A DNA stretch of 64,000 nt. It comes from Octopus vulgaris (lineage: Eukaryota). Each line of letters opens with the position of its first letter. The stretch's first letter is position 1. The notes below the pieces were generated by a model. The model had not been told where the DNA came from and made no database searches. It saw only the letters and a list, made by a program, of their open reading frames with translations. The translations under genes and the position numbers were made by a program. The stretch is from NCBI GenBank assembly GCA_951406725.2, contig OX597818.1:28210001-28274000 (forward strand). The letters are read 5' to 3'. Below, one piece after another: positions 36,755 through 62,859 of the stretch.

Positions 36755-36792
<38 letters not shown>

Positions 36793-36797
<5 letters not shown>

Positions 36798-38039: not shown

Positions 38040-38912
38040 AAATCAAAGTAAAACCAGCTCTGACAAGCATAATTCTGGATAGAATAGTGAAACATAATTC
38101 TGGATAGAATAGTGAAACATATTGTGCTTAAAAACCATCAAAGAACAGCAACAAAAGTCACAGTAGAGCTGAACTACTACTTTGCCAACCTTATGTAAAC
38201 CATAACCATTTGTCCTGACCTCGATAAAGCTGGATGTCATGAAATGGTTGCAATTGTTAAACCACTCCTGTCCCCAACAACACTGATTAGCAGAAAAAAT
38301 GGTGTTTAGATTATCAGATCAATGATATAATCTTCTCTGATGAATTACCTGGAGACAGTCTATAGAAGAGTTAACCCCTGACTGTATGGCTCCTACTGGG
38401 AAGCATGAAGTCTGTGATGATTAGAGCAGTCATATCACAGAATTATTTTGGCTCTTAAGTTGTTTTACATGGCAGAGCTAATACAATTGATTATCTGAGT
38501 ATTTTGGCTGATTATGTCCATCCTATGGTACAAAAGTTGTTCCTTGATGGTTATACCATCTTCTAGGATGATAATGCACCAATTCTCATGGTGAATGTTA
38601 TTCAAAACTGATACGAAGAGCACAGGAGTGAAGTAGACCATTGGGATTGGCCCACAGAATCACTTGATCTCAATTTAATTTAACATTTGTGGAGCATTTT
38701 GGAAGTGCATGTGAGAAGTTGCTTCTCTTTGTCACCATTACTGAAAGAGCTAAATAGGTTTTACTTGAAGAATGGCTCAAAATCTGTTCAGAAACTGTAT
38801 TAATCAATACCCCAGCATATTAAAGTTGTGATTGAAGCCAAAGGTGATAAGCTCTGTATCAAATCATTAACTTCTATTTAACAAGGTGTTGCCATTATTT
38901 TGTCCAACCCTG
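38040..38912 (+). mobile_element. Tc1-like transposase relic (mirror ~50930-51760)
   Basis: Translates to F*DDNAPI...WPTESLDLNLI*HLW; terminus ccattattttgtccaaccctg. Confidence 0.75.
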
Positions 38913-39089
38913 TGTGTGTGTGTGTGTGTGTGTGTGTGCATGCGTGCGTGCATCATAGGTAAATCATAAATCTGTAAAAGAAGCACACTTTAAGTTATAG
39001 AACAGTATAGTATAAAGATAGATGAGGCTGGTCCATGGGATTACCCTGGGTTTCACATCAATAAAGCACTTACGTTTACAGCGAATCTA

Positions 39090-39319
39090 TCTCTTTACTA
39101 CCCACAAGGGGCTAAACACAGAGGGGACAAACAAGGACAGACAAACGGGTTAAGTCGATGAGATCGATTCCAGTGCGTAACTGGTACTTAATTTATCGAC
39201 CCTGAAAGGATGAAAGGCAAAGTCGACCTCGGCGGAATTTGAAATCAGAACGTAACGGCAGACGAAATATGGCTACGCATTTCGCCCGGTGTGCTAAAGT
39301 TTCTGCCAGCTCGCCGCCT
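39090..39319 (-). mobile_element. SINE (mirror 50513-50742)
   Basis: Head aggcggcgagctggcagaaac; core gtcgactttgcctttcatcctttc. Confidence 0.88.
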
Positions 39320-39559
39320 TTACAGCATATCATCAGACCTCAAAACCCATTGGTACATGGCCTCTCTAGAAAATGGAGAAGGAAAAGACTTTGTTACTCT
39401 GTCAACAACAGGGGAATGTCTCCCTTTGGCTTTTATTCATAATTGACTCTGTTATCATATGGGTCCCAGGATGCCAGCAAGAATTTCCTGAAGTGCAAAC
39501 AGGGTCCAAACCCTTCCATTCAGGAGTTAAGGATGTTCCCTGGGTCAATGGAGTCCTTT

Positions 39560-41520
39560 AATATACCCACCCATTTGGCTATGCAGTTTACAACACTTGG
39601 TTGCATTTATTTAGGGGCCTGGCTTCTCTAGGATTCTCAATGATATTACATGCAGAATTACTTCATCTTTCAGCCACCATGGCTGGCTGATGACATAGTG
39701 TGTCTCCTTTCCAGTATCCTGAAAGAGGATCCGTGGTTGGAGAGGCAATGCTTGAACAAGTTACTGGAGCATCTGATGCATCTCTGTGTATAGCTGTTGA
39801 CGATGTTGTATCTGCTGGTGTTGACGCTGTTGCTACTGCTGTTGTTATTGGTGCTGTTGGTGTTATTGGCACCATTAAATGTATTGATGGTGTTGGTGCT
39901 GTTACTGCTGGTGTAGGGGACCTCAGTGATGATGGTGCTGTTGATGGCGTTATAGTTGTCATCGATGGTATTGTTGGAGTTGATGTCGATGCTATCATGG
40001 TGAGTGGTGCTGTCACCGTTATTATAGTTATCATTTGTGATGGATCTGCTGCTTTTTCTGTAAGGGATACTGTTATTGCTATTGTTGATGTTGTTATCAC
40101 TGGCGGCAGTAGTGCTGCTGCTAATCCTGTTTGTGTTTCTACTGCTGCTGTTATTGATACTGACATTCCTGCTACTGTAGTAGTCGTCATAGAAGCTGCT
40201 GCTACTAGGGTTGCCTAGTACATCATCTTCATAGATAGGTCCCTTGGTTTCACAATGGCTTCCCACTTGGCATCTGTTGTAGTCCCTGCATGAGCATCTC
40301 ACATCCATCATGGTCTAGATGTGCTAATTAAAATGCTCTTAATATTTATAGGGCAGCTAAAAGAGACCCTAAGGTTGTGCCTGTTGAAAATGCATCTGCA
40401 TCTATGTGAATGTGTGAAGTGTTTATCTACTAGCCTATGGAAAATCCTACCTTCAGATGTAGGGAGAAGGAGTGGGGGAAAAAAACCAATGATATTTCCA
40501 TGGTACTTCCTTCTGCGGGTATTAGAGCCCAGCATGTAGGAGATGTGGTCCTGAAATCCACCAGCAGCTTGTGACTTGTTATAGTAGGAGCCTGCTGCAT
40601 CAAAAATTTCTTGGCTAGAGGGAAGGTTCATGATTCTCTCACTAATACCCTTTACTAGGTTTTTGAACACAATTGATTGGTGATGGGAGACTGTTGATGT
40701 ATGTCAGCCAGTCACGTGGTTTGCAGTTGAACCTGTATCTACTGGAGCCCAAGTCGAGCATGATGTCCAAGAAGTCTACTATGGTGAGATTGGTCTTGAT
40801 AGTAATTTTCAGTCCCATGGAGCCAGGGGTGCTAATTAGATCTTTCCTAAGCCTGTTTAGGGTGTGGCCATGGGCTCCTCTAATGATGGTCTGCACGTCA
40901 TCTTAATAGAGACCAAAAAAGACAGAGGGAAACTTCTTCAGAGTGTCGCATACATCAGCACTGTCATTAGCTCCCATTGCAATGTCAAAGGAGCCTACAG
41001 GGTCAGATTGCTTGACCCGGGTCAAGCTTTTATTGAGCAGTACTGTTTTCCTAGCATAATGACATCTGTGTCCCTGTCACTAATATCAGTGAAGCCCCTA
41101 GCAAAGGAAAGTGCTTTGACCTGTAACACTTTTGATATAAACAGGTAAAATTCAACTATGTCAAATTAGATGAACCTTGCTTTGCCTCCCCCTTGTTTGT
41201 ATTAAACCATGCAATCACCTCATTGGTGTTATGCCATAGGGAGAGGTTGGTGGCTCTCCTTATACTGTTGTTAATGTTTTCAGTATGTAATTGCTTGCTA
41301 GACTGATCTCGGATTTTGCTGGGTTAATCAGGTGGCATTTAGGGATTCAGGCTAAGCTTGGTTTATGGTTTGATGGTAGTAAAGGCATTCTTTCTTGCTA
41401 AAATCTCTACTCCATCTGCTATATCTAAGTCGCTGGCTAATTATTTGGCTTCACTGTTGATGTTGTTGTATGTGTGTGGGGAAGCATGTATATTGTATGT
41501 GTGTGGGTAATCTATGGGGT
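39560..41520 (-). mobile_element. Penelope-like element (RT C-terminus + GIY-YIG with Asn/Ser-rich insert)
   Basis: VDFLDIMLDL..KP..YIN, ISERI..SS.EIFD.A..YY, NIIGFFPP, CSC..C..G.C....IY. Confidence 0.85.
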
Positions 41521-42259
41521 TACCATGGATTTCACAGCCATAAAGTGCTTAGATTTACAATGTTATTTGTAATCTTGTTGACTAATGAAGTCTTTTCCTC
41601 CTCCATTTTCTAGAAGGGCCACTTGCTACAGAGGACATGTGTCATACAATCTCTGATTTTGTAACTAGGAAGTTTCTAGTTACAAAATCAGTGATTGTAT
41701 TACACTGTATTTTCTTTTTATCACATAGAAGTTAAACTACTGCCATACTTAGCACATGAGTGCCCACCACCAAAGGGATCCAATAAGATCCAAATCATGT
41801 GGTCTGGTGGTCTTGAAGCTAGGATGGCAAAAGTTATTTCCCACTTGCAATAAATAGCGAGTGCAGAAAGTGTATCAATAAACGTCTTCCTGGGGTTAAA
41901 GCAGTAATATTATCATCTCTTAGAGAACACACATGTTAAAGTGGCTATAAACATTATACAGGGGAACTTCGCTGTATGAGTGTCCCATTGTATGAGTAAT
42001 TCTGTAAAAGCCAAGGTTCATGTGAATTTTTGTCTTGAAGTACAAGCAAAAATCCACAGTACAAGCATGTTTCATACAATAACACTGCTCAGGCACATTT
42101 TCATATATTTTGAAAAGCAGGAAAAAGCAGACTTTTCTGGATATTTTTCTAATGAAATGAACTGCAAGTGTAAAAAAAATGAAGAAAGTGTGTCCAAAAA
42201 GCCTAAATTATGCAAAGTGAGACAGAAAACGCCAGTAATTCTTCTTTCTGAAGTCTTAA

Positions 42260-42822
42260 TGGAAGGAGAATCTCCTTCTAGACAGTAAACCTCCTTCCTC
42301 TCACTCTACTATCTTCCTCACGCACAAATTGTTCTATCCTTAAGGCAATTCTGTTAATAAAACCAGTTTACATATTTCTTTTGCATTCTCTATTTTTATA
42401 ATAGTAATTTTACTTCTAATTACACCATATCTGTTTTAAAACCCATAAAAAAATTATTTTTGGGTGGTTTTAGGTGGCTGGAACAAAATTAATTATATTT
42501 TAGTTAATTTCAATGAAGAAAATTGATTTGTAATATGAGTAAATCGTAAAACAAGCTCAGTCATGGAAAAATTAACCCTTTCAATACCAACTTGGCTGAA
42601 ACTGCCTCTGGCTCTGTAGTATGAATGTCTTTTCAAAATTTCTAGATTAAAATCTTTCATCAAACCTTAGTCACAATTTATGTTCCTAACACTAGCTTAA
42701 TGATAACTAAGTTATTTTACTAAATTCCTTGTTAAGTTTAAAATTAATTAAAAGAAACACAGATCATCTCAAAATAAATACAGTAACAAAAGGGTTAAAC
42801 TCATACTGCGAGTTATCACTGT
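42260..42822 (+). mobile_element. Tigger-like 3' fragment (mirror ~47010-47570)
   Basis: ggctggaac..attaatt..ttcaatg motif; terminus aactcatactgcgagttatcactg-TA. Confidence 0.55.
42576..42794. mobile_element. piggyBac-type MITE (mirror 47038-47256)
   Basis: TTAA|cccttt...aaaggg|TTAA. Confidence 0.8.
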
Positions 42823-44375
42823 ATGCATATGTGTGTGTGTGTGTGGAAAGAGAGAGAGAGAGAGATTGACAGACAGACAGACAGAGAACAATGCCAATTG
42901 AAAATGTACCATTTTACCACAAATCTAAACATTTTCATATATTATAGAGAGTAAAAACAAACATTTGTATTCAATTTTGATAATGAGTTTTTCTGTTATT
43001 CGATTTATATTGAATTATATTATAAGTGGTTGAATATTCTACAGATATATGTATTCTTAGCATAATCTTTAAGCAGAATCAGCACACTGCAGAGTGACAA
43101 AGCTGACTTTTTGAATTACTAGTCCAGCCTTTCTGATGACCTTCCACACAGCTTCTGTCTATCCAGTTTCACTCTCAAAAATTTGGTGAACTTGAAACTA
43201 TAGTAAAAGATGCTAGCCCAAGACTTCACACAGTAGCATTGAATCATGGAAGATAGATATATGAGACAGAATTCCATATATGATGTACAGGATGTAGATT
43301 ATCTGGAAGCCTATCCTTTATTTTTAGTCATTATGACAACCGTTAACATTTTTCTACAACGTTTAAATAAGTATCAAATAATAGAAAATTGTTTGAGATT
43401 ATAAGTAGAGTGATGTGTGTTGTTGGAATTTCCTCACAATGACCTTGACTTAAGTAGATCAATTGAAACCATTATAAATTAACCCATGCTAGCATGGAAA
43501 GCGGACGTTAAACAATGATGATGATGATGATGATGGTTATGAGTCACAACTTCAACAATAATGAATTTGAACTTATATACAAAAAATAACTTGCTAGTTC
43601 TTGGATAAACCTCATATTTTACTACTAAGAATATCCACAATGTCCTAAATCAGACATGCACATGAGCTGTTTAAATTGTTTATTTATTTATATTTATTTA
43701 TTTAGTGTACAAATCAATTTACTTTTTCAATTACTGACCTTTCAATGTTGGAGTGATTGATATATTTGTTTGTTGTCTTGGTTTGGTAACCTTATTCAAC
43801 CCTAACCTCTCAGCTGCTATGTCCCTATAGTATACTGTCAACATTAATATTAGGAAGGATATCTAACTTTGAAAATGGCTACTCCAACAATTCTTCCAAA
43901 TTGGCTCATCTAAAACCAAATAAACTTGAAGGCACATCAGACAGAAAATTTAAAGAAAAGTAAAAAAGAAAAACAAAAACAAAAACAAAAGAAAATCAAC
44001 TTTTAAAGTATAAATCTTCATTAAATGTTAAGCTTTGTTTATAATATAACTAGTCAGTACATACGGATCTGGATGTGTCTGACGCCTTGTAATATCAGGA
44101 TGTTTCAATATAAGTATGTGAAATAGGATAAGTAAATTAAGTCACAATCTAATGTATTGTATTCTCATTGCCAGCTGCTTTCCAGTGCACATATCCTGAA
44201 ATAAAGCACCACTTTACCAAAGAGATAAGGTTTTAATTTTCAATGGAAAGAAGTATTCAAACAAAACTATTATTTAATGTACATATATACACTTCGAAAT
44301 TTTGTATTCGTTATTTGTTATATGAACAAATGTTTACCAGGAGAAAAATATTTTTAAAAATAAGAATGATCTATT

Positions 44376-44702
44376 AGGTGCAGGCATGGCTGTGTGGTAA
44401 GAAATTTTCTTCCCAACCACATGGTTCTGGGTTCAGTCACGCTGCATCGCACTTGGTCAGGTGCTTTCTACTACAGCCTTGGTCCGACAAAAGCCTTGTG
44501 AGTGGATTTCATAGATGGAAACAAATGCATTTGTATGTGCCTTTGCTTTGTGTGTGTATGTGTGTTCGTCTTCACCACTGATTGACAACTGGTGTTGCTT
44601 TGTTTACATTACCATAACTTAGCAATTCAGCAAAAGTAACTGATAGAATAAGTACCAGGCTTTAAAAGAAAAATTTAAGTACTGGGGTCAATTTCTTCAA
44701 AT
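44376..44702 (+). mobile_element. SINE truncated at the palindrome centre (mirror 45096-45458 is ~36 bp longer)
   Basis: Head gcaggcatggctgtgtggtaagaa..ggttctgggttcagtc. Confidence 0.85.
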
Positions 44703-45095
44703 TTTATTGACTCTAGATTGGCAGGCTTTTACAGTTCCGGGCTGGACAAGCTACCACTGAAATGGCAAAACTGTATTGACAATATGGGTGAATATTTTGT
44801 TGAATATAACTATTCCTTGTATTTATAAAACATTAGCAAACTTTTTTCTTCTCTACAAATTTCATGCTTGATGACCTAATAGTTAAGCATTAGTAGGTGT
44901 GGCACACAACATCTTGCATGAAGGAGTGATACAGAACTGAGGATGAGGTACTGCTAATGTTTCAAAGGGTTTGAGCAAAAAAATAATACAAACACATTTT
45001 GAAACGAGTTAATCAAATTTAACTTCACTTATATTAAGGGACAGTCTCAAAAGTTTTTTTGCGCACTAGTCACATGATTCCTGTATATAATTTGG
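44701..45095 (-). repeat. Inverted 395-bp copy of 28339-28733 (mariner end plus flank)
   Basis: Direct comparison: same length, about 2 substitutions seen. Confidence 0.97.
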
Positions 45096-48000
45096 GCTGG
45101 GGTCTTACTGAGGTACTACTTTGAAGGATTTATTTGAAGAAATTGACCCCAGTACTTAAATTTTTCTTTTAAAGCCTGGTACTTATTCTATCAGTTACTT
45201 TTGCTGAATTGCTAAGTTATGGTAATGTAAACAAAGCAACACCAGTTGTCAATCAGTGGTGAAGACGAACACACATACACACACAAAGCAAAGGCACATA
45301 CAAATGCATTTGTTTCCATCTATGAAATCCACTCACAAGGCTTTTGTCGGACCAAGGCTGTAGTAGAAAGCACCTGACCAAGTGCGATGCAGCGTGACTG
45401 AACCCAGAACCATGTGGTTGGGAAGAAAATTTCTTACCACACAGCCATGCCTGCACCTAATAGATCATTCTTATTTTTAAAAATATTTTTCTCCTGGTAA
45501 ACATTTGTTCATATAACAAATAACGAATACAAAATTTCGAAGTGTATATATGTACATTAAATAATAGTTTTGTTTGAATACTTCTTTCCATTGAAAATTA
45601 AAACCTTATCTCTTTGGTAAAGTGGTGCTTTATTTCAGGATATGTGCACTGGAAAGCAGCTGGCAATGAGAATACAATACATTAGATTGTGACTTAATTT
45701 ACTTATCCTATTTCACATACTTATATTGAAACATCCTGATATTACAAGGCGTCAGACACATCCAGATCCGTATGTACTGACTAGTTATATTATAAACAAA
45801 GCTTAACATTTAATGAAGATTTATACTTTAAAAGTTGATTTTCTTTTGTTTTTGTTTTTGTTTTTCTTTTTTACTTTTCTTTAAATTTTCTGTCTGATGT
45901 GCCTTCAAGTTTATTTGGTTTTAGATGAGCCAATTTGGAAGAATTGTTGGAGTAGCCATTTTCAAAGTTAGATATCCTTCCTAATATTAATGTTGACAGT
46001 ATACTATAGGGACATAGCAGCTGAGAGGTTAGGGTTGAATAAGGTTACCAAACCAAGACAACAAACAAATATATCAATCACTCCAACATTGAAAGGTCAG
46101 TAATTGAAAAAGTAAATTGATTTGTACACTAAATAAATAAATATAAATAAATAAACAATTTAAACAGCTCATGTGCATGTCTGATTTAGGACATTGTGGA
46201 TATTCTTAGTAGTAAAATATGAGGTTTATCCAAGAACTAGCAAGTTATTTTTTGTATATAAGTTCAAATTCATTATTGTTGAAGTTGTGACTCATAACCA
46301 TCATCATCATCATCATCATTGTTTAACGTCCGCTTTCCATGCTAGCATGGGTTAATTTATAATGGTTTCAATTGATCTACTTAAGTCAAGGTCATTGTGA
46401 GGAAATTCCAACAACACACATCACTCTACTTATAATCTCAAACAATTTTCTATTATTTGATACTTATTTAAACGTTGTAGAAAAATGTTAACGGTTGTCA
46501 TAATGACTAAAAATAAAGGATAGGCTTCCAGATAATCTACATCCTGTACATCATATATGGAATTCTGTCTCATATATCTATCTTCCATGATTCAATGCTA
46601 CTGTGTGAAGTCTTGGGCTAGCATCTTTTACTATAGTTTCAAGTTCACCAAATTTTTGAGAGTGAAACTGGATAGACAGAAGCTGTGTGGAAGGTCATCA
46701 GAAAGGCTGGACTAGTAATTCAAAAAGTCAGCTTTGTCACTCTGCAGTGTGCTGATTCTGCTTAAAGATTATGCTAAGAATACATATATCTGTAGAATAT
46801 TCAACCACTTATAATATAATTCAATATAAATCGAATAACAGAAAAACTCATTATCAAAATTGAATACAAATGTTTGTTTTTACTCTCTATAATATATGAA
46901 AATGTTTAGATTTGTGGTAAAATGGTACATTTTCAATTGGCATTGTTCTCTGTCTGTCTGTCTGTCAATCTCTCTCTCTCTCTCTTTCCACACACACACA
47001 CATATGCATACAGTGATAACTCGCAGTATGAGTTTAACCCTTTTGTTACTGTATTTATTTTGAGATGATCTGTGTTTCTTTTAATTAATTTTAAACTTAA
47101 CAAGGAATTTAGTAAAATAACTTAGTTATCATTAAGCTAGTGTTAGGAACATAAATTGTGACTAAGGTTTGATGAAAGATTTTAATCTAGAAATTTTGAA
47201 AAGACATTCATACTACAGAGCCAGAGGCAGTTTCAGCCAAGTTGGTATTGAAAGGGTTAATTTTTCCATGACTGAGCTTGTTTTACGATTTACTCATATT
47301 ACAAATCAATTTTCTTCATTGAAATTAACTAAAATATAATTAATTTTGTTCCAGCCACCTAAAACCACCCAAAAATAATTTTTTTATGGGTTTTAAAACA
47401 GATATGGTGTAATTAGAAGTAAAATTACTATTATAAAAATAGAGAATGCAAAAGAAATATGTAAACTGGTTTTATTAACAGAATTGCCTTAAGGATAGAA
47501 CAATTTGTGCGTGAGGAAGATAGTAGAGTGAGAGGAAGGAGGTTTACTGTCTAGAAGGAGATTCTCCTTCCATTAAGACTTCAGAAAGAAGAATTACTGG
47601 CGTTTTCTGTCTCACTTTGCATAATTTAGGCTTTTTGGACACACTTTCTTCATTTTTTTACACTTGCAGTTCATTTCATTAGAAAAATATCCAGAAAAAT
47701 CTGCTTTTTCCTGCTTTTCAAAATATATGAAAATGTGCCTGAGCAGTGTTATTGTATGAAACATGCTTGTACTGTGGATTTTTGCTTGTACTTCAAGACA
47801 AAAATTCACATGAACCTTGGCTTTTACAGAATTACTCATACAATGGGACACTCATACAGCGAAGTTCCCCTGTATAATGTTTATAGCCACTTTAACATGT
47901 GTGTTCTCTAAGAGATGATAATATTACTGCTTTAACCCCAGGAAGACGTTTATTGATACACTTTCTGCACTCGCTATTTATTGCAAGTGGGAAATAACTT

Positions 48001-48309
48001 TTGCCATCCTAGCTTCAAGACCACCAGACCACATGATTTGGATCTTATTGGATCCCTTTGGTGGTGGGCACTCATGTGCTAAGTATGGCAGTAGTTTAAC
48101 TTCTATGTGATAAAAAGAAAATACAGTGTAATACAATCACTGATTTTGTAACTAGAAACTTCCTAGTTACAAAATCAGAGATTGTATGACACATGTCCTC
48201 TGTAGCAAGTGGCCCTTCTAGAAAATGGAGGAGGAAAAGACTTCATTAGTCAACAAGATTACAAATAACATTGTAAATCTAAGCACTTTATGGCTGTGAA
48301 ATCCATGGT

Positions 48310-50270
48310 AACCCCATAGATTACCCACACACATACAACATACATGCTTCCCCACACACATACAACAACATCAACAGTGAAGCCAAATAATTAGCCAGCG
48401 ACTTAGATATAGCAGATGGAGTAGAGATTTTAGCAAGAAAGAATGCCTTTACTACCATCAAACCATAAACCAAGCTTAGCCTGAATCCCTAAATGCCACC
48501 TGATTAACCCAGCAAAATCCGAGATCAGTCTAGCAAGCAATTACATACTGAAGAACATTAACAACAGTATAAGGAGAGCCACCAACCTCTCCCTATGGCA
48601 TAACACCAATGAGGTGATTGCATGGTTTAATACCAACAAGGGGGAGGCAAAGCAAGGTTCATCTAATTTGACATAGTTGAATTTTACCTGTTTATATCAA
48701 AAGTGTTACAGGTCAAAGCACTTTCCTTTGCTAGGGGCTTCACTGATATTAGTGACAGGGACACAGATGTCATTATGCTAGGAAAACAGTACTGCTCAAT
48801 AAAAGCTTGACCCGGGTCAAGCAATCTGACCCTGTAGGCTCCTTTGACATTGCAATGGGAGCTTATGACAGTGCTGATGTATGCGACACTCTGAAGAAGT
48901 TTCCCTCTGTCTTTTTTGGTCTCTATTAAGATGACGTGCAGGGCATCATTAGAGGAGCCCATGGCCACACCCTAAACAGGCTTAGGAAAGATCTAATTAG
49001 CACCCCTGGCTCCATGGGACTGAAAATTACTATCAAGACCAATCTCACAATAGTAGACTTCTTGGACATCATGCTCGACTTGGGCTCCAGTAGATACAGG
49101 TTCAACTGCAAACCACGTGACTGGCTGACATACATCAACAGTCTCCCATCACCAATCAATTGTGTTCAAAAACCTAGTAAAGGGTATTAGTGAGAGAATC
49201 ATGAACCTTCCCTCTAGCCAAGAAATTTTTGATGCAGCAGGCTCCTACTATAACAAGTCACAAGCTGCTGGTGGATTTCAGGACCACATCTCCTACATGC
49301 TGGGCTCTAATACCCGCAGAAGGAAGTACCATGGAAATATCATTGGTTTTTTTCCCCCACTCCTTCTCCCTACATCTGAAGGTAGGATTTTCCATAGGCT
49401 AGTAGATAAACACTTCACACATTCACATAGATGCAGATGCATTTTCAACAGGCACAACCTTAGGGTCTCTTTTAGCTGCCCTACCAATATTAAGAGCATT
49501 TTAATTAGCACATCTAGACCATGATGGATGTGAGATGCTCATGCAGGGACTACAACAGATGCCAAGTGGGAAGCCATTGTGAAACCAAGGGACCTATCTA
49601 TGAAGATGATGTACTAGGCAACCCTAGTAGCAGCAGCTTCTATGATGACTACTACAGTAGCAGGAATGTCAGTATCAATAACAGCAGCAGTAGAAACACA
49701 AACAGGATTAGCAGCAGCACTACTGCCACCAGTGATAACAACATCAACAATAGCAATAACAGTATCCCTTACAGAAATAGCAGCAGATCCATCACAAATG
49801 ATAACTATAATAATGGTGACAGCACCACTCACCATGATAGCATCGACATCAACTCCAACAATACCATCGATGACAACTATAACGCCATCAACAGCACCAT
49901 CATCACTGAGGTCCCCTACACCAGCAGTAACAGCACCAACACCATCAATACATTTAATGGTGCCAATAACGCCAACAGCACCAATAACAACAGCAGTAGC
50001 AACAGCGTCAACACCAGCAGATACAACATCGTCAACAGCTATACACAGAGATGCATCAGATGCTCCAGTAACTTGTTCAAGCATTGCCTCTCCAACCACG
50101 GATCCTCTTTCAGGATACTGGAAAGGAGACACACTATGTCATCAGCCAGCCATGGTGGCTGAAAGATGAAGTAATTCTGCATGTAATATCATAGAGAATC
50201 CTAGAGAAGCCAGGCCCCTAAATAAATGCAACCAAGTGTTGTAAACTGCATAGCCAAATGGGTGGGTATA
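48310..50270 (+). mobile_element. Penelope-like element, mirror copy
   Basis: ORFs 48936, 49162 and 49521 near-identical to 40642, 40308 and 39670. Confidence 0.85.
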
Positions 50271-51982
50271 TTAAAGGACTCCATTGACCCAGGGAACATC
50301 CTTAACTCCTGAATGGAAGGGTTTGGACCCTGTTTGCACTTCAGGAAATTCTTGCTGGCATCCTGGGACCCATATGATAACAGAGTCAATTATGAATAAA
50401 AGCCAAAGGGAGACATTCCCCTGTTGTTGACAGAGTAACAAAGTCTTTTCCTTCTCCATTTTCTAGAGAGGCCATGTACCAATGGGTTTTGAGGTCTGAT
50501 GATATGCTGTAAAGGCGGCGAGCTGGCAGAAACTTTAGCACACCGGGCGAAATGCGTAGCCATATTTCGTCTGCCGTTACGTTCTGATTTCAAATTCCGC
50601 CAAGGTCGACTTTGCCTTTCATCCTTTCGGGGTCGATAAATTAAGTACCAGTTACGCACTGGGATCGATCTCATCGACTTAACCCGTTTGTCTGTCCTTG
50701 TTTGTCCCCTCTGTGTTTAGCCCCTTGTGGGTAGTAAAGAGATAGATACGCTGTAAACGTAAGTGCTTTATTGATGTGAAACCCAGAGTAATCCCATGGA
50801 CCAGCCTCATCTATCTTTATACTATACCGTTCTATAACTTAAAGTGTGCTTCTTTTACAGATTTATGATTTACCTATGATGCACGCACGCATGCACACAC
50901 ACACACACACACACACATCACACACACACACAGGGTTGGACAAAATAATGGCAACACCTTGTTAAATAGAAGTTAATGATTTGATACAGAGCTTATCACC
51001 TTTGGCTTCAATCACAACTTTAATATGCTGGGGTATTGATTAATACAGTTTCTGAACAGATTTTGAGCCATTCTTCAGGTAAAACCTATTTAGCTCTTTC
51101 AGTAATGGTGACAAAGAGAAGCAACTTCTCACATGCACTTCCAAAATGCTCCACAAATGTTAAATTAAATTGAGATCAAGTGATTCTGTGGGCCAATCCC
51201 AATGGTCTACTTCACTCCTGTGCTCTTCGTATCAGTTTTGAATAACATTCACCATGAGAATTGGTGCATTATCATCCTAGAAGATGGTACAACCATCAAG
51301 GAACAACTTTTGTACCATAGGATGGACATAATCAGCCAAAATACTCAGATAATCAATTGTATTAGCTCTGCCATGTAAAACAACTTAAGAGCCAAAATAA
51401 TTCTGTGATATGACTGCTCTAATCATCACAGACTTCATGCTTCCCAGTAGGAGCCATACAATCAGGGGTTAACTCTTCTATAGATTGTCTCCAGGTAATT
51501 CATCAGAGAATTGATCTGATAATCTAAACACCATTTTTTCTGCTAATCAGTGTTGTTGGGGACAGGAGTGGTTTAACAATTGCAACCATTTCATGACATC
51601 CAGCTTTATCGAGGTCAGGACAAATGGTTATGGTTTACACAAGGTTGGCAAAGTAGTAGTTCAGCTCTACTGTGACTTTTTTTGCTGTTCTTTGATGGTT
51701 TTTAAGCACAATATGTTTCACTATTCTATCCAGAATTATGCTTGTCAGAGCTAGTTTTACTTTGATTTTGAAAAACCAACCTAATTTTAAACTGTACCTC
51801 TCAAAATATTTAGCAATTCAATAGTTTTAGTGACTTAAGCTCCAGCCATCTGCACTTCAAAAATGTATCTGCTTTCAAAATTAAGTCACATGTTTCAATA
51901 TCGTTAGATATAGATAACAGCAAAAACAGGGTGTTATATCATAATGTGCAAAGTATAAATAATATATATATGGACACATGTA

Positions 51983-53119
51983 TTGGGTCATCCCATAAAT
52001 AATGCAGTTTTTTATACGTCGTTTATTTTTCAAAATTAAGATAAACAATTTCTTTTTTAATCTAAAATATACTCTCCTTCATTTTCTTCAATGCTCTTCC
52101 ATCTATCTTGATGACTTGCAAGACACCTCTTCCAAAAGTCACTTGTCCATGATAAGAAATACTCCTCCAGTACTGTTCTGACCTCATCTACAGAGTTCAT
52201 ATTTTTTCCATCCAAATGATTTTGAAGACTGTGGAATAAATGATAATCAAACAGGGTAAAGTTCGGCGAATATGGTGGGTGGGGCATTGTTTTTCTTCTA
52301 GTGCTGACTTAAGCTGCTCAAGCTGCTTGCAGTAGATCTCATTTGTTATTGTTTGATTTGGGTTTAAAAGTTCAAAATGGATAAAACCTTTCATATCCCA
52401 CCAAACAGATAACAACACCTTACAAGTGTGAAGACCTATAACCTAGGGTGCCAGTGTTTCTCCTTTCCCTACCCACTTTCTTTGGCACTCAACATTTTTA
52501 TAGAGAATCCATTTCTCAACACCAGTCACTATTCAGTCCAAAAAAGGTCCATTTGTGAGAAGTGACAGCAAAGAAGAGCAGACATTCACTCTCTGCATGC
52601 GATTAAACTCCAAAAGTTTGTGAAGGACCTACTACCCCAATTTGCTGAATTTTCTGATAGTATGCAGGTGTCAATGAATGGTCGAATGACCAAATCCAAA
52701 CTTCTGTACTAGTCCCTCAACAGTTATGATGGGATTTTGTTCCACCAGGATTCGCAGGGCATCCTTGTCTACAGATCTTCTAGGACGAGGCTCATCTTCT
52801 AGGCTGTAATTTCTGGCTTGGAATTTCTGGAACCACCATTGAGACTGACTTAGGATTATTGTCCATTTATATTCCTCGCACTTTCCATTGAACTCATAAA
52901 CCAAAATATGTCAAATATGTTCTTTGTTACTTCCATTGTAGCTTTGAAAAAATAACTATTAAAATCTAACTGCACTCTTCAAAACTTGCACTAAGAATAA
53001 ATACAAAGTAAATTTACTATCTGCTTTTATAGCAAGTTGATACTGGTAGTTTATTCTGTCTCCCTCCAACTTTTAGTACATGTAATTGAAAAAACTGCAT
53101 TATATATGGGATGACCCAA
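51983..53119 (-). mobile_element. Mariner with both TIRs (intact counterpart of 37104-37826)
   Basis: TA-ttgggtcatcccata...tatgggatgacccaa-TA; WFQKFQARNYSLEDEPR. Confidence 0.92.
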
Positions 53120-53759
53120 TACATATATACAGACTGGGATAGCTGTGAATTTGTATAATTGTCAGTAAGAGAGATAGCTAAATAAAATGCAATGCTACCA
53201 GTATTTTGTGCAACCCTCTATATACACAAACATACTTGCTTGTGCATGTACACACACATGAACATATATACACACAGATACTCAGGTCGTCTAAAAGAAT
53301 GTATACACATTTTAACAGGTGATAATAATTTAATTTTCATTTATTTTTCAGATTTAACCCATCAGAAATAATGAACAGAGCCAGAATAAACTTTGAACAA
53401 AGGAAATCTTTCCTAAAGTGCCATTGTAAGTTCGAATATGAAGGAGGGAGATTCAAACAGATCTACCTGCACAATTCACAATCATTCAAATTAGGGATGA
53501 GTTTGAAGCTGTGGAATTATTCAGAATGTTTACATGACTGTGATCATTGATGAGCCCAAATAACTATCACCAAAGGAAGGATATTGCTAGAGTTTAAAAA
53601 AAAAATCAGTGTGGCATGGGAGTTGTAAGACAGGAATTTCAAAATCAAGCATTCATCACATTTGCAACACTGTAACTGGAAAAGTTACATTCCAAGAAGA
53701 GTTCATATTCTCAGTGAAGATGATCCAGACCAATGAATGGAATTTTGTGGTATGACAAA

Positions 53760-54836
53760 GTGTAAAATTGGGTACAAGCAGCATCAGTTGTAGTGCATAA
53801 GACAGAAGATTGCACCAGTATGGTTATGTGATGTGTATGGATGAGGACAGCTGTATAAAGAAGTGCCAGTCTCTAAAAGTGGAGGGAACCTGTGGAAGAG
53901 AAAGACTCAGGAAGATGTGAGATGAAGTGATGAAAAATGATTATCAGATGTTGAGCTTCACAGAGATCACACAGGACAGATTTAATTGACAATTGACTGT
54001 GCTTGAGAAAACCCAGCTAAGAAATATCCATGTCGGCACCCCTTCCCTCCCCCACAACCCACTTATGCTTACCAGGTTTTTCCCTCCCTTCCATTCTCCC
54101 TCATGTATCTACCTATACTCTATATGGTCATGTTAAATCCCTGTACCACAACATTTTCTCCTAATATCCCTCAATCTACCCATATCAAGACAATTACCCT
54201 CCTAGGACAACTATCCCTCATAGAACAATTCCTCCCAACGAAAACTACCCCATAGGACAATTACAACTCCTGGTTAATTACCCCTCTCCAATATATTAAG
54301 AAGTTTAAATCATCATCTGTTGTCCTCAGAGGGTAAATGTTCTAAACTCCCATTTACCAGTGCCCACTCATTACATCCCGCACCTCTAGCTCTCACTCTC
54401 TTTATGAAATCTTGTGAACACATCCACTCTTTCACCCTCTCCAATCCCCAGTCCACTTCCCTATATACCCTAACCTATACCTTGGGTGTGTGGCCTCTAC
54501 CCCTCCTTGTCACATCTTCACCATCTGTCTTTCCTCTCTCTCTCTCCATCTGAAGTAGCAATGTTTCTCTTCTATGCAAGACACCTTCTTTCTCTGTCCT
54601 TCAATATTACTCCAATTGAGGGGCTTGTCCTGCAAGTTACTTGGTGGCCTCACTGCTGCTGGTACTACATCAAAAGCACTCAGATTACTCTGTAAAGTGG
54701 TTGTCATTAGGAAGGGCATCAATCTGCAGAAAGCATGCCTAAACAGACGTCAGATCTTGATGCAGTTTTCTGAATTGTGAATTCCTGTGAAACCATCCTG
54801 CCTATGCCAGTATGGAAAATGAATGTTAAATGATGT

Positions 54837-54866
<30 letters not shown>
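53760..54866 (+). mobile_element. Degraded RTE 3' region
   Basis: LHQYGYVMCMDEDSCIKKC..VEGTCGR; (GAT)n tail at ~54835-54866. Confidence 0.75.
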
Positions 54867-54867
<1 letters not shown>

Positions 54868-55189
54868 ATATATATATATTTAATATGTTTACTTGGGTGT
54901 GTATAGTAGAAAACAAGCCCCTGAATATTTCTGCCAAGTAATAGGTCTCAAGTAGTAGTTACTCAGTTTCCATGGTAAATAAGTGACCAAGATCACAAGA
55001 TACCCCTTGAATGGATTGGCAACCAATCACAGGGTTATATATTTACAACTAAGTGGACAGGTGCAACATGAAATGAAGTGTTTTGCACAAGATACAACAC
55101 ACCACCTGGTTCAGGAATCAAAAACATGATCTTCTGATACATATATATATATATGCACATATAGACACATCCATACATATGCACACATA

Positions 55190-58100
55190 TCTATCTTGCT
55201 CTCTCTCTCTTTGTCTGTCTGTGTAACTGCATGCATTTGTACATCTTACAGTTAATTTTCACCAAATTTCATACATAGGTTTCTGAAGTTCTATTATGCA
55301 TCATAGGCTATTTTATTTTTCTGTACCTCGATTGTACCCCACCCCCAGGTGCAGATAACCCCCTTAAGCCTCTCTTGGAGTCAGCAGTACTACAGCATAA
55401 AGGCCCCATAATTCCTGCAGTTTGCCTCCCATCTTCACCAAAATTAATCTTTTGTTTGCTTATGGCCTACAAATAAAGTTGCAAGCATGCACTTGCACAG
55501 AAATCCAGGTAGAGGACCCCCTGGTGAGTAGTAAACCGATTTTGATGAATGTTGAAGTTGATATTATCAATGCAACAAAACTGGTTGAGTTGGCGTTTGG
55601 TTTTCACAAAACAAGACATATTGATTACCAATGGCTCACAGAGGAAGGTGAACATACGAACCTTTATTTGAACTTATCAAGGGGACCCTGGAGGAGTAGT
55701 AAGCCCCTTTGACTTACCGACTGAAGTTCACATTAACATTGTATTAGTACCTAATAACTTTTGAAGTTTATGCTCAATTTTAGCATTAGGGGACACATTG
55801 GTTACCCATTGCCTAAAGATGGTGTTGAAGATGCTGTCTATACCTGGAACAAGCAAGGGGACTCCCAGGGGGCATAAGTCCTGGCAAGTCATTTACTGAA
55901 TTTGGCTCTTGTAATACAACAAAGGGTCATAGCTTCGATAATTGGTAGTCCCATAAAATGAATTTCGACTCAGTTGTTATTCATTTACTACAGATGAAGA
56001 TACAGAGAGGCACATTTACTTCCATTTCAATTCAGCAAGACGATCCCCTTGGGAGCAATGAACCTAAATCGTTAACCCATAAAAGTTCAAAGTGCCACAA
56101 TAAAACAGCATCAGAACCTCGGGAGTTAATCATGGTTCTTGCCAATCATAAGATAAAGTATTGCAAATTCGTTATCACTTGAATTCTGCCCCCCTAGGGA
56201 GGGCAGTGAGCCCCTTTGGACCACTTTTAGAGTTCATATATGATTGCAGCAAAGCATTTTAACTTCTGGAAATAACAGTCAATTTAAACATAAGTCGATG
56301 CATCTATTACTCATGTCTTACAAATGGAGTAGTGAATTTATAAGTCCCATTGACTAAACTTTAGTTTACTTAGTTAACTTTAGGATGGTTGAATTTAATT
56401 TTGCACTCGGTTGTCTCCCATGTGTAATTGCCCCACAATTAAGTGTGGAATGGAGAGTTAATTTTTTTTCCTTGAACTTTAGCATCATTTCATACTCCTA
56501 ACCAAGAAAGTGTGATTTAACCCAGGTGTAAATTTTAATGTCTACTGTATGTAAATTGTGCTATTTCACAATTATGCCTAAACTGTGCAAATGATTGATT
56601 AGTTTTTGCACACCATTTTTTGCCTCCCCCATTTAATTGTACCCTAATTAAGTGGGAAATGGTGACCTCTGGCCAACCACACATCAGTGAGTTGTGTTCA
56701 GCAGATTTCATCACACTTATTTGTATTATCTAACCAATCAGACACCTTCAGTGTTTTTCATTAAGCGAAATCACTTCTATTTATCTCGGTCGAGTCCAAC
56801 CTAGGATCATACTTCATTTTTGGCTTTTGACAAGTGGTAGGTTTTTTTACTTGTATACTTTCATAAGCTACCCCATGTTTCTGAAATGTATGCTTTTTCA
56901 ACAATTTACACTTTAAATGAGGTTTATTTAATGTGTTTATGGTCATAAGTTTCCAGTTTATCATGCTGTGATTTTTTGGACATTTTTGCCTCTATCCTTT
57001 CAATAGTTAATATTTACTTATTGCTATTGTTACGAACGGCAAAAAAATATATTGATTTTGTGTTTGTGTGACGCGAACATCATTCCCTGTCTTTTAAAAG
57101 GAAAAAGAAAGGAAAAAGAAGAAAAAACGAAGTCTATTAAAAGAAATAAAAAGAAAAATTGAACAGTCCATGTTGTCAGATGGATAAAGAGAGAAAAGCC
57201 TTTAAAAAGAGAGAGCAGACAGTAGACCTGAAGGACAGCCATGGAGTTAGGTCAGTAGGAAGGAGAGATCGGTTGTTGAGTGGACAAAAAGTTCAGTTGC
57301 TGAGTTGACAAAAAAGGTCAAAGAATGGTCATCATGTAGGTGTTGCGTGCTGAGATCAACAAAAGACCATGAGTTGGTAGTTGTGTCGTAGAGACGTTCA
57401 TGTTGTGATTTTATCAAGAAAATTAAGTTTGACGAAATGCAACGGTTTAGATTTGTTGTTGACGGCTTTTCTGGCTTCTCGATACTGCTTTTTCTGTTTC
57501 TGTTGCGGTAAATGACTTGCTCAGTGGGTTGCCACGTGTGCGAGCAGGCTGTTTCACGCTAGAACCTGTAGTGGTATCACCGACGGCCATACGTTTGTGT
57601 GGTGCATAACTCGATGTTCAAACTGAACAAACATACTGACACTTATATACCTACCACTGTAGCCACACTATTTAATTTCCTTTATCACAGGTAGTCCATA
57701 CGCTGGGTTGCCCCTAACTTAAAACCCGAGATTTGACTGGTACACAAAATCTTGCAAAACATACTCACTTTCTCAAAGCACATAGATATATTACATTTTT
57801 TCGCAATTTATATTCGTGTTTAGATTTGCTTGCCTTACTTAAACGTCATTTGTTCACATTTCATTGTTCTCCCTGGTAAATTCTCTAAAAACAATGCCTC
57901 TTAAGAAAAGAACTTTGATTGGTCACTGATGCAAGTAGATCTAACCGAAGGCATGTCACCGAAGATGTAAATGCAAGTGCGATCATGCTCTCACTGAATA
58001 CTGTGCAGATGGCAGCTGGAAGAGCAGAGGAAGATGACAGTCGGCATGAACCTTGGCAGAACAAAGATGCTGCAGTGACTGCTGCAGTGACTGCTGCTGT

Positions 58101-59030
58101 TCGCGCTGGAGGAGATGACGGACGACTTGCCATTCAATGAAGCAGGGATGCCACTGCAACATCCACAGCTCCCGCTCAAGAGGATGAAGGATGGTGTGCC
58201 GTTCGACGAAGCAGGGATGCTGCTGCCATATCTGCTGCTCGTGCTCGAGAGAATGAAGGACAACATGCCATTCAACACAGCATTGATGCTACTGCAACTG
58301 CCACTGCTTATGCTCAAGAGGATGAAGGACGACATGCCATTTGATGAAGCAGGTACACTATTGCAACAGCCACTGCTAGCACTTGAGAGGATGAAGGACT
58401 ATGTGCCATTCGACGAAGCAGGGATTCCACTGCAACAGGTGCTGTTCGCTCTCAAAATGATGAAGGACGACATGGTGTTTGATGAAGCAGGAATGCCACT
58501 GCCACTGCTCTGCATGAAATAGTGAAACCATACAGCAATGATGTGGCCAACCACTTCAAATTGAAAAGCGGCCATCATTGTTTCATGGCATTTCTAGGAC
58601 TTGCAATTCACGATGGTTGTTGAAAGCCTTAAACTACGACTCCTCCTATGACTACGCCAGCCATGGAAATATCCAACTTGGGGAAATGACCTCTACTTGC
58701 CAGATATGTTGTGCGAAAAAGTGGCCAGAGGAAAGAGATGGAATGTGCTGCTCAAACGATGAAATTAGACTACTTCCTATTTACAACCCTTCAGAGACAT
58801 TACAACTCCTTTTGACAGACACAGAAGAGGAATCAGTGAAGTTTCTGCGTAATATCTGCTACCAGAATTCTGCCTTTCATATGACATCCTTCAGAGCAAA
58901 GCTTGAATCAGAATACGGGCCATGCTGACTTTGAAAGTCCAGGGACAGTTCTACCACTTGATTGGGTCTATTCAGTCTATGGTAGAAAAGAGTCCTCAAT
59001 TTCTTAAGTTAGACTTCAGATTTTTCACTG
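55190..59030 (+). mobile_element. Helitron, mirror copy
   Basis: ORF 58578-58928 mirrors 32740-33090. Confidence 0.8.
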
Positions 59031-59351
59031 CTTGCCCTTTAGCTAGCTGTCAACCTGTGTTTAGTCAATTTGCAAGTTTGTTTTACTGATGATTTCATAT
59101 GATTATTCGATAATGAAGAGTATATATTTTACTTTTTATCTTTTTCAGTTATTAGATGGAAAATATATGGTATTTATAAACATAAACATACGTACCAATT
59201 ACAGTCATGTGCAAATTACTTAGTTCATTGTAGAGAAAAGACGCAAGAATAAATTATGTGAAGCCGAAGGCAAACCCATAGTAACAGAGTTCATATCTAA
59301 CTGTGGCAACAACACAACAGAAACTGGAAAGAAGCTTGTCGAATATCTATT

Positions 59352-60623
59352 ACAGGAATTCCTTGATTAGTGTGGTTGATTAATTCTCCTGAAACTCCAC
59401 ATATACCAAAACCACATTAATCAAACCTAAGAACCAATGCAATTATTATAGCAAACTCTCGGAAATACCAAAATCATAAACATCTTTTTCTCAATCAAAG
59501 CACATCTATGTTGTTGTTTGTTCCTTCTCAAGCCATACCTGTCTCATAAGGGCCAGTTTCATTGTGTATAGATTCCCCCACCTGGGCAGGATGCTGATGA
59601 GCTGCTAGATGTAGGAGGAAAGTGTGAGAGAAAGTTGTGGCAAAGGAGTCAGCAGGTTTGCCATTACCTTCTGCTGGAGCTGCGTGGAGCTTAGGTATTT
59701 CATTCATAAGCACACACATCACCTGGTCTGAGATTCAAACCCGTGATCCTTTGACTGCAAGTTCCTTGCTCTAACCACTAGGCCATGTTCCTCCATAAAA
59801 CACATCTATAATGCATTGTATTTACTTTAAATAATTGAGGAGTATATTAAAAAAAATATAGTATCTACCTTCCATTAAACAGTGGTAGCTGTTTTACTTC
59901 CCTCCATGATTTTGCAATAGCAACCATTTGCTTATCTAGCCCTCAACGAACGTTCATGCATCTCTTTTCATTTGAATCAATCTTTTGAATGAGTTCTTTT
60001 GCTTTTTCAATTGTTTGTAACAATTCTTGAAGTTTTTTGACTGAAATATCTTTGGGTGTGGTTTCCATTTCTTCTGTTTGCTTTTCATTTCTCTTTCATA
60101 TGCCTTTTGATGCTTCATTCCAAAAAGATTGTCATTACTTAGTTTTTTTTTTTAATCTGAAACAACTCCATTAATTCTCTAACATTTTCCAAATCTATTT
60201 CCTTAATTCCTCAAAGCAGAAGTATCTTCCAGTTGTAGCAATTTCATTAATAACTTTGTTGCTGGGGTTATTGAAACTGAAAAAATCGTTAGTGCATTCA
60301 AGTAAAAGATTCTGCCAGATAGCTCTCATACAGCTGCCTGTTACTTCTTCCAAGACTTGTGAAAGTTTTCAACTGCTTGTTTCTCAATTTTCACCCAAAA
60401 TTCTTCAAGTGTGATTGGATTATAACTTGAATTACCTGCATGAAAGTTCTTTGCAAATAATATGGTTTGAATGTATTGTAGAAATCACTTCTTGGTAATC
60501 ACTCCTTGGCTGTAGTAAAGGAGTCGTATTTGGTGATAGAAATATAACCTTCACATTGCTATCTAAATCACTGAGGTGGGATGCCTAAGGGAATTATCTA
60601 AAATTAGAACTTTTAAATCTAAA
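59352..60623 (-). mobile_element. Tigger/pogo relic, mirror copy cut by the duplication breakpoint
   Basis: Reverse complement of 31047-32318. Confidence 0.8.
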
Positions 60624-60786
60624 ATGTGTTTGTATTATTTTTTTGCTCAAACCCTTTGAAACATTAGCAGTACCTCATCCTCAGTTCTGTATCACTCCTT
60701 CATGCAAGATGTTGTGTGCCACACCTACTAATGCTTAACTATTAGGTCATCAAGCATGAAATTTGTAGAGAAGAAAAAAGTTTGCT
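60621..60786 (+). repeat. Direct 166-bp copy of 28434-28599
   Basis: aaaatgtgtttgtatt...gaaaaaagtttgct appears identical; includes the mariner TIR at 60742. Confidence 0.97.
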
Positions 60787-62763
60787 CTGGGTATGGATGG
60801 CATACATGCGAAGTTGCTGCAGCATGGTGGTGAGAAACTTCTGCAACAGCTTCACTCATTGTTGGTAGGATATGGGCTAGTGAATCTGTACTCGAGGACT
60901 GGAGAGATACAGTAATAGTGGTCTTATATTAGGGAAAGGGCAACAGGAATGATTGTGGTAACTATAGGGGAATATCATTACTTTCTGTCATAGGAAAGGT
61001 TTTATGCAGGGTACTTCTAGATCATCTGCTGAAACATGTTGCAGATTCTGTTTTTCTGGAAAGTCAATCATGCTTTCATGTGGCACACGGCACTGCTGCT
61101 GTGATTTTCTCAGCTAGGTAGCTTCAGGAGAAGTGTGTGGAACAGGGTCTGGATTTATATCAGGTTTTTGTCGATCTGACAAAAGCCATTGATACCATTA
61201 ATAGAAATGCACTGTGGAAAGTCCTCCAAAAACTTGGTTGTCCTGAAAAGTTCCTTGCTTTGGTTAGGTCTTTTCATGAAGGCATGAAGGGTAGGGTTAA
61301 TGTTCGAGATAAAATATCAGAACCCATCTCAATACAAAATGGAGTGAAACAGGGGGGATATTCTGGCACTGACCCTATTTGCCATATATTTTGCGATGGT
61401 TTTCTGTATTGCATTCAGAAATTGCAGATATGGTGTTTACATCCATTATCATAACTTTGGCAGCATATTTAGTATCAGGGGCTTTGCTACAAAAACAAAG
61501 GTATTTACCTTTATCATTAGAGACCTTTTGTATGCAAATGATTGTGATTTAGTAGCACACACAGAGATTGGTATGCAACACATTTTGAATGCATTCTCTG
61601 ATGTTTGCACTGCCTTAGGATTGACAATCAGTCTCAAGAAAACTGTTGAAATGTACTAACCCGCCCCTGGTAAGCAGTATAGTGAACCAAATATCTATGT
61701 GTATGGTAAACGACTTGTAGTTGATCAGTTTGTCTACCTGGCAAGTACTGTTAATAGATATAGTAATTTGGATAATGAAATTCCATACAGAATTAGGAAA
61801 GTAAGTGACGCTTTCAAAAGGCTAAAAAGGCACCTCTGGAATCAGTGAGACATATGCAGGAAGACAAAGATAAAGGTGTACAAGACGTATGTGCTCTCTT
61901 CTATTTTTTATGCCTGTAAGACCTGCGTCACATATCGATACCACCTTAATCAACTGGAATGTTTCCATCAGATATATCTCAGATGGATCTATGGCATTAA
62001 GTAGGAGGACTGCATCAGTGATCTTGAGATATTGGAAAGCTTGCAGTGTGTAAGTATAGCAGCTCTTGTGTTGAAGCAAAGTCTCAGATGGAATGGTCAT
62101 CTGGTCAGGATGAAAGATTCAAGGATGCCAAAACGACTCTTTTATGGAGAGTTAGCTAAAGGAGAACAACCTCCACATAAATGAAAATAAAAGGGTATAA
62201 AGACTTGCTGAAGGCTTCCTTGAGAGATGCTTGCATCTCTCCTGACACATGGGAGGGCATAGCTATTAACCATAGTAGGAGAAGGGTTGTGCATGAGGGG
62301 ACAGCTACTTTTGAGAAATCTTGAGTTGGGCATTAGAAAGCGAGGAGGGATGTCAGGAAGAGCATTGCAGTGGCACTGCCAGACAGTAAAGGTCTTCTTA
62401 TGATGTTGAAATGCACTGTCCGTGAAAGACTCTGCCTCAGTAACGCTGAAGTCAAGAGTCATCTTCGTAGTCATAAAGCAAGACCAATAATTGACTACCA
62501 GGCCACTGGTGGTGGTGCTACACACCATACTAATCATATGTGGAAGGGAGTGTGATTCGGCGGAAGGACTTAAAAGACACACAAAGGTACATGAAGCCCA
62601 ATTATAACTACAGCCAGCAATTGCCAATAAAGGTTTTAGCTACCAATTCTGTACAAGACATTGTAGATCTTCAGTTGGGCTGAAAAGTCACATTTGATCA
62701 CAGCACCATTAACAACTAAGCCTCGTGCAATGGCCATACTCGATTATGAGGAGGCAGCCATCA
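60787..62763 (+). mobile_element. Degraded RTE (BovB-like) LINE
   Basis: GMDGIHAKLL, NYRGISLLS, FVDLTKAIDT, GVKQG, DLLYANDC, LRWNGHLVRM; decayed C2H2-like C-terminus. Confidence 0.9.
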
Positions 62764-62859
62764 TGTGTGTATGTATGTATGTCTTTATGTATGTATGCAT
62801 ACCTATATGTATAATATCTTTACCTGTATGTATATAAGCATGTACGTATATGTATGTGC

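Follow-up and report, generated by a model that had tools for sequence, protein, structure and literature searches.

How does a palindrome arise whose two breakpoints are both patched with copies of the same small site? The question is raised by a stretch of 64,000 nucleotides of Octopus vulgaris DNA (assembly GCA_951406725.2, contig OX597818.1, positions 28,210,001 to 28,274,000), which was analysed as a whole and is called the window below. In it, a long tract of transposon remnants is followed by its own inverted copy, with one patch at the apex and another at the far end. We give an even chance to the reading that this is a real and young local four-jump, that is, a fold-back duplication ending in an aborted inverted triplication, whose left arm was swapped for that of the homologue later or concurrently.

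Four junctions and two patches that match one site

All junction coordinates were obtained by self-BLAST of the window together with base-level views of the junctions. The parts of the rearrangement are as follows.

28,339-28,733 (+): source of patch 1, made of 212 bp of flank and the left end of a decayed mariner
28,339-28,433 (+): segment b, part of the patch 1 source
28,434-28,599 (+): segment c, part of the patch 1 source and equal to patch 2
28,600-28,733 (+): segment d, part of the patch 1 source
28,734-31,046 (+): segment e, single copy, the 2.3 kb from the patch source to the end of the inverted tract
31,047-44,702 (+): left arm, segment f, in which only transposon remnants were found
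41,199-44,702 (+): inner zone, where the left arm is almost the same as the right
44,701-45,095 (-): patch 1, inverted copy of 28,339-28,733
45,095/45,096: junction 2, between patch 1 and spacer g
45,096-45,131 (-): unique spacer g, 36 bp, continuation of a short interspersed nuclear element (SINE)
45,132-60,623 (-): right arm, inverted copy of f, with a different haplotype or history
60,621-60,786 (+): patch 2, direct copy of 28,434-28,599 and also the reverse complement of 44,835-45,000

With g' for the reverse complement of g and h for the DNA from 60,787 onward, the window reads a b c d e f / inverted(b c d) / g inverted(f) / c / h. Segments b, d and f are present twice and segment c three times, around four clustered junctions, two inverted and two non-inverted, with copy gains. 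Junctions 1 and 2 each span about 16 kb and junction 3 is a jump of 2,613 bp; two bases (AT) overlap at junction 1 and three (AAA) at junction 3. Matches as long as these cannot be due to chance. The original prediction had given the four junctions, both patches and both overlaps exactly as we find them. It had also taken 45,096-45,131 for a continuation of the SINE that has no left-arm counterpart, and alignment to other SINE copies bore this out.

Patch 1 and its source agree at 393 of 395 positions, the differences standing at 28,639 and 28,696, and patch 2 agrees with segment c at 166 of 166; the three copies of segment c are identical to one another. Both differences fall in d and none within the 261 bp of b and c, a contrast that is not significant (Fisher p 0.11). 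Patch 2 is wholly nested in patch 1 and has no base that would tell its donor apart: the source, patch 1 and an older distal copy are all candidates. Such nesting has a chance probability of 1.4% over 16.4 kb and of 12-28% in a zone of 1-2 kb, and the ages of the patches give no separation between the junctions. It had been proposed that a single event visited a distant site twice; this is not required, junction 3 being a U-turn of 2,613 bp, of the kind that would form the second junction of an inverted triplication, and patch 2 being nested in patch 1, and the fragile site postulated at 28.3-28.7 kb was not shown.

Several decayed elements are cut by the rearrangement.

28,551-29,837 (-): decayed mariner (Pfam PF01359), with terminal inverted repeats (TIRs) at 28,551-28,581 and 29,807-29,837
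Cut at 31,047 by junction 3: DDE_1 remnant (pogo/Tigger-type, Pfam PF03184)
44,375-44,702 (+): SINE, interrupted at junction 1, with the following 36 bp found only on the right-arm side
60,787-62,765 (+): remnant of an RTE-type long interspersed nuclear element, entered at junction 4; 3' end approximate

The TIRs of the mariner are complementary at 30 of 31 positions, and its left-TIR variant is present in both patches. Both patches straddle the left TIR end, from which the junctions are offset by -212, +182, -117 and +48 bp, none being at the terminus; on these offsets, transposase cleavage at the TIR and alternative transposition of the mariner were rejected. A dispersed repeat was rejected as well, since the patch ends differ, flank is included, the left-TIR variant of this very copy is carried and no other copy of the patch flank was found within the 64-kb window, to which the search was confined. 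A second mariner remnant (27,065-27,985) stops some 350 bp short of the patch source and is followed by a (TATG)n tract at 28,059-28,121.

At junction 4 the sequence resumes inside the RTE, as predicted: from 60,787 on, the element is matched by 119 of 120 reverse transcriptase (RT) proteins in tblastn. It is heavily decayed, with at least 17 stops per frame. A target-site duplication of at least 8 nt was not found around it, one 7-mer from d being matched after the tail. A naturally 5'-truncated RTE at junction 4 was rejected, the element being heavily decayed, segment c identical to its source and no duplication of at least 8 nt present. Both the tail of the SINE and the 5' part of the RTE are absent at the junctions.

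Microhomology at the two junctions that have no visible overlap was looked for in related copies. Spacer g, which has no left-arm counterpart, aligns with the 3' part of three SINE copies in the window (empirical p 0.0004, 0.04 and 0.24). The bases that come next at junction 2 are CAAAT in two of these three copies and CCAAT in the third, and patch 1 starts with CCAAAT; the chance of such a 5-mer within one base of register is 0.7%. This suggests a microhomology of 5-6 bp at junction 2. At junction 4, the last codon of c gives the Ala of the K-A-x-G-x-D motif of RT, and K-A opens this motif in 98 of 101 counts listed across 120 RT proteins, which points to a microhomology of 2-3 bp. We rely on the motif count here because the tblastn alignments stop short of the junction: none of the 119 leftmost starts falls at 60,740-60,830, most being at 60,885-60,897. 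All four joins probably had microhomologies of 2-6 bp, two of them seen and two predicted from these comparisons.

Divergence between the arms

With 46 microsatellite columns masked, 123 substitutions separate the arms over 13,565 columns; there are also 17 small indels and one gap of 1,838 bp, and the differences are very unevenly spread. A change-point was found at 41,198/48,634, with 2 substitutions in 3,501 columns (0.06%; 95% bound, at most 0.18%) on the inner side and 121 in 10,064 (1.20%) on the outer side, a contrast reached by 0 of 2,000 permutations. Counted from the apex, the first 1,871 bp are exact and the first substitution comes past 2,567 columns. The outer divergence is patchy (chi-square p 8e-6; p 6e-5 with non-CpG events only). 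It peaks at 22-26 events per kb at 35-37 kb and is then lower again, with no steady rise, and a further change-point within the outer arms fell short of significance (133 of 2,000 permutations). Derived changes are found on both arms, with a tandem duplication of 25 bp on the left and one of 12 bp on the right, and CpG decay in the arms counts 13 vs 7. A hairpin with 33-bp stems, a 1-nt loop and 91% complementarity stands at 41,639-41,705 and again at 48,126-48,192, about 450 bp from the onset of divergence.

The large gap concerns two features of the right arm.

52,703-54,540 (no strand): tract of 1,838 bp without a left-arm counterpart, in which a mariner has its second TIR
About 51,980-53,120: this mariner, which has both TIRs and is complete in the right arm but is truncated in the left

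The corresponding deletion in the left arm lies at about 37,105, with a TCT overlap at its ends. An insertion of the 1,838 bp into the right arm was rejected, there being no target-site duplication and the piece completing the mariner. We therefore take the gap as a derived deletion of the left arm, because the right-arm tract contains the second TIR of the mariner. This deletion and the 1.2% outer divergence show that the right arm cannot have been copied from the present left arm, so that homologue exchange, later history or a diploid assembly is needed. Octopus heterozygosity has been published as above 1.1% (PMC6472339) and as 1.22% (10.1101/2023.05.16.540928). The outer value of 1.20% is near these figures, and the inner value of 0.06% does not match them. 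Altogether, the arms look like two haplotypes with a common young core.

A proposed local four-jump and its rivals

From the four junctions, the copy gains and the two visible microhomologies, all of them observed directly, we infer a series of microhomology-led template switches that would have made a 13.7-kb fold-back inverted duplication, with distal DNA lost or bypassed. A fork would have stalled at about 44.7 kb, and the nascent end would have made an excursion of 395 nt to the 28.3-28.7-kb site, returned to the opposite strand at most 36 nt from the stall point and copied back toward that same site. At 2.3 kb short of it, synthesis would have turned onto segment c, that of the source or that of the patch 1 it had itself made, and after 166 nt it would have escaped to the distal RTE, the inverted triplication being aborted. 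The left arm, which stands in its normal place and orientation, would have been replaced by the other haplotype beyond about 3.5 kb from the apex, through a later allelic crossover or through an inter-homologue switch during the event, and the founder haplotype would be retained in the right arm and the patches. On this reading the event is young, the inner divergence being at most 0.18%, part of which may be consensus error. Copy-neutral inter-homologue switches are described in such events (PMC6480824). Identity at the apex is what linkage to a new junction predicts, and the patchiness of the outer divergence supports allelic exchange, as allelic mosaics are patchy. The most fitting view of the 28.3-28.7-kb site is that it forms the other end of one and the same open structure, a sister fork of the bubble or the first displacement loop, and is no distant hotspot.

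A more specific version, which strikes us as unlikely, is that template switching took place between the sister forks of one 16-kb replication bubble and was fossilised in the germline. The strand would have moved over from the right to the left fork, returned, recopied nearly the whole bubble in reverse and turned at the left fork. The patch lengths of 166 bp and 395 bp would then be on the scale of Okazaki fragments, for which a yeast figure of 165 bp is quoted (PMC10766183).

Several points weigh against the local four-jump as set out above. The patches show 2 differences in 561 positions where 6.7 are expected at the mean outer rate (P 0.035). The rate in the nearest 1.6 kb lowers the expectation to 3.9, so that patch identity alone is no proof of youth. 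Indels stand to substitutions as 3:2 in the inner zone and as 14:121 in the outer arms (Fisher p 0.013), and the inner excess of indels may be consensus error. Two of the four microhomologies are drawn from paralogues and not from the ancestral allele. Extended homeology is weak: p values of in-register alignments with 40-nt flanks were 0.5 at junction 1, 0.76-0.94 at junction 2 and 0.04-0.09 at junction 3. In a screen of 5 comparisons at 4 window sizes, an 11-mer at junction 2 (p 0.001-0.004) and a 10-mer at junction 1 (p 0.004-0.012) were present with windows of 50-80 nt and gone at 40, and a match at junction 3 (p 0.02-0.04) was of low complexity. Extended homeology was rejected as a proof of direction, its significance being lost at 40-nt flanks. 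An 11-mer is common to the spacer (45,115-45,125) and to the flank at 28,294-28,304, 35 bp upstream of the start of patch 1; if meaningful, it would favour the direction of synthesis in which the spacer is flipped.

The order of the segments can also be rewritten with the same junctions. The original prediction had described a single path, and k-mer comparison gives several. In the spacer-flipped isomer, a b c d e f g' / b c d / inverted(f) / c / h, the SINE is unbroken, both patches run forward, and every observed k-mer is present up to k=1,871. Two single-copy alleles, one (H1) with the order a b c d e f g' b c h and another (H2) with a b c d inverted(f) c h, fit the junctions too. When they were built from slices of the window, their k-mer set was exactly as observed up to k=167, and every observed k-mer was in H1 or H2 up to k=262, the first absent one being the 263-mer at 44,834-45,096. 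That the junctions lie in cis is presumed from the assembly sequence. By this equivalence, a two-step history via the 261-bp direct repeat, or an assembly of two alleles, becomes possible.

The two-step history is the rival that we take most seriously, though we regard it as rather unlikely. A first event would have brought SINE and RTE together, with junction 2 on the SINE side and junction 4 on the RTE side, via a 261-bp templated copy of b and c, and a second event would have reused this repeat. For the second event, a break in the distal copy could have invaded the proximal copy through homology, run 134 bp into d, switched to the inverted strand at junction 1 and returned within the distal copy at junction 3; or else an inversion allele (junctions 1 and 3) could have met an uninverted allele in an unequal crossover at the repeat. 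In a variant, a full inverted triplication would later have been cut by a deletion at junction 4, and secondary erosion of inverted triplications has been proposed (PMC10766186). Such a history requires the breakpoint order 28,339 < 28,434 < 28,599 < 28,733, which is the order seen, and it explains the nesting of patch 2. The location of both patch differences in d, with none in the 261 bp of b and c, is in its favour, although that contrast is short of significance. It also demands an extra event and, in most versions, a flip of the spacer as well, and no intermediate allele is in hand.

An assembly artefact appears unlikely. The animal would carry a heterozygous inversion, and H1 and H2 would have been walked in series, so that the junctions are real and the palindrome lies on no chromosome. 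The k-mer agreement (exact up to k=167, with all observed k-mers covered up to k=262) and the allele-like level of difference between the arms, including the 1.8-kb indel, are as expected of such a case. Yet it needs a phase switch in the 261-bp repeat, which long reads would span, and mis-resolution of the inner zone in addition; the count of 0 N in 64,000 bases suggests, without proving, that the assembly is of long reads. Near-identity at the apex is also unpredicted, unless the alleles have a recent common ancestor at junction 2.

We find it improbable that the palindrome is old, diverged in place by about 1.2% and homogenised over its inner 3.5 kb by gene conversion from arm to arm. Identity is indeed maximal at the apex, derived changes are found in both arms (the 25-bp and 12-bp duplications, and CpG decay of 13 vs 7), and the 33-bp hairpin at 41,639-41,705 lies near the divergence boundary. 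However, the copies of c show no difference (P 0.05 under ageing at the pace of the outer arms), patch 2 is not part of either arm, and the outer divergence is humped at 35-37 kb instead of increasing steadily. Very improbable, finally, is an origin driven by transposons or made in the library (alternative transposition of the mariner, insertions of dispersed repeats, or chimeric reads from fold-back or amplification): the patches do straddle the mariner left TIR end and fold-back read artefacts are reported to occur (PMC12870357, PMC6218980), but no junction stands at the TIR terminus and two independent chimeras would need the same 400 bp.

Repeat context and known rearrangements

Only decayed transposons were seen in the context of the rearrangement. 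Pfam was run on 20 open reading frames, of which seven had matches, all of transposase or RT type; Rfam gave 0 matches, and no host gene was found in the duplicated DNA. A phenotype is unlikely because no host gene was found there. Protein searches with the RT named matches in Argonauta hians (55%) and Elysia chlorotica (51%), none of them close. From these molluscan RT matches and from the family of its SINE, the DNA is presumably octopod-like.

Other repeats of the window were noted. An older inverted repeat at 1,416-2,936 has arms of about 570 bp with 85% identity and a TA-rich spacer of 362 bp, and is possibly a foldback element or one of the miniature inverted-repeat transposable element type; nested inverted repeats stand beside it at 1,150-1,376. 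Near-perfect direct repeats (10,714-10,785/12,116-12,187, 71/72; 1-41/504-544, 41/41) are found among much older ones. A tandem array of 69/138 bp followed by a cysteine-rich frame lies at 32,400-33,700 (-), with a copy near 58,000-59,200; the frame has no Pfam match, and we take it to resemble a decayed Helitron N-terminus with 23-residue repeats. Low-complexity frames rich in Asn, Ser and Thr, open on both strands, lie at 39,660-41,200 (-) and in the right-arm copy. The fragments beside them, without a Pfam match, presumably resemble a Penelope-type RT.

The closest class is most likely the local n-jump of fork stalling and template switching or microhomology-mediated break-induced replication (FoSTeS/MMBIR), which would make this a known kind of rearrangement; we compared it with the cases of PMC7025897. 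Both show clustered breakpoints and low-level gains, with inverted junctions beside non-inverted ones; in both, the derivative can be ordered in several ways and a fragment proximal to the main break has been inserted. Here, clustered junctions come with copy gain, and microhomology is found at junctions. The assignment to the FoSTeS/MMBIR type, as first proposed, fits the copy gains, the junction mix and the microhomology, and it has to be extended by a homologue, later or diploid step. The cases in that source are tumours, studied with a reference and read depth, while ours is an assembly of a non-model species with arms that differ at the allele level.

The fold-back inverted duplications with deletion of Hermetz et al. 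2014 (PMC3907307) resemble this locus in their head-to-head duplication with a non-duplicated spacer, in microhomologies of 2-8 bp and in templated insertions at some junctions. Their spacers are of 766-70,466 bp, whereas ours consists of 36 bp of unique DNA and a 395-bp copy, and their insertions come mostly from less than 1 kb away, whereas one of ours comes from 16 kb. Their duplications are intrachromosomal and end in telomeres or translocations; here the inner 3.5 kb fits arms of the same chromosome, and the outer 10 kb, with 1.2% divergence and a 1.8-kb deletion, is non-identical. DUP-TRP/INV-DUP events (inverted triplications flanked by duplications) also show reverse copying followed by forward synthesis again (Grochowski et al. 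2024, PMC11293582), several conformers from the same junctions and homologue switches (PMC11293582; Carvalho et al. 2019, PMC6480824). Unlike in those events, only 166 bp is recopied here in place of a third direct copy, and junction 1 shows no parental homology in self-BLAST where they have a first switch at long inverted repeats.

In origin-dependent inverted-repeat amplification (ODIRA; PMC10766183, PMC10766186), the ends of the inverted tract likewise correspond to a pair of fork-like positions, homologue variants may be mixed and secondary deletions occur. The spacing is 40-80 bp, and our spacer of 36 bp is close to this range. ODIRA has short interrupted repeats at both junctions, whereas this locus has a 395-bp insertion at the apex and a junction 3 that skips 2,613 bp; ODIRA also has an origin and a triplication, neither of which is shown here. 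The O7 inversion of Drosophila subobscura (PMC7584159) is an invertebrate germline case with breakpoint duplications, for which a model of break-induced replication or MMBIR using the homologue was given, along with spacer inversion between inverted repeats. It differs from ours in being a balanced inversion of 10 Mb that affects genes and for which both arrangements were sequenced. No report of this locus stood among the papers listed in literature searches, which is weak evidence of absence.

If the palindrome is an artefact, a heterozygous inversion with genuine junctions has been assembled as a palindrome, and the locus is a warning for other repeat-rich heterozygous genomes. If it is real, it is a local four-jump resolved to the base in an invertebrate genome, in which one small site was reused, and it shows how allelic recombination later wears a palindrome arm down inward from its outer end. 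Should the switching between sister forks of a single bubble be true, the frozen right arm and the recombining left arm would together form a built-in clock, with a divergence of at most 0.18% in the inner zone against 1.2% in the outer one.

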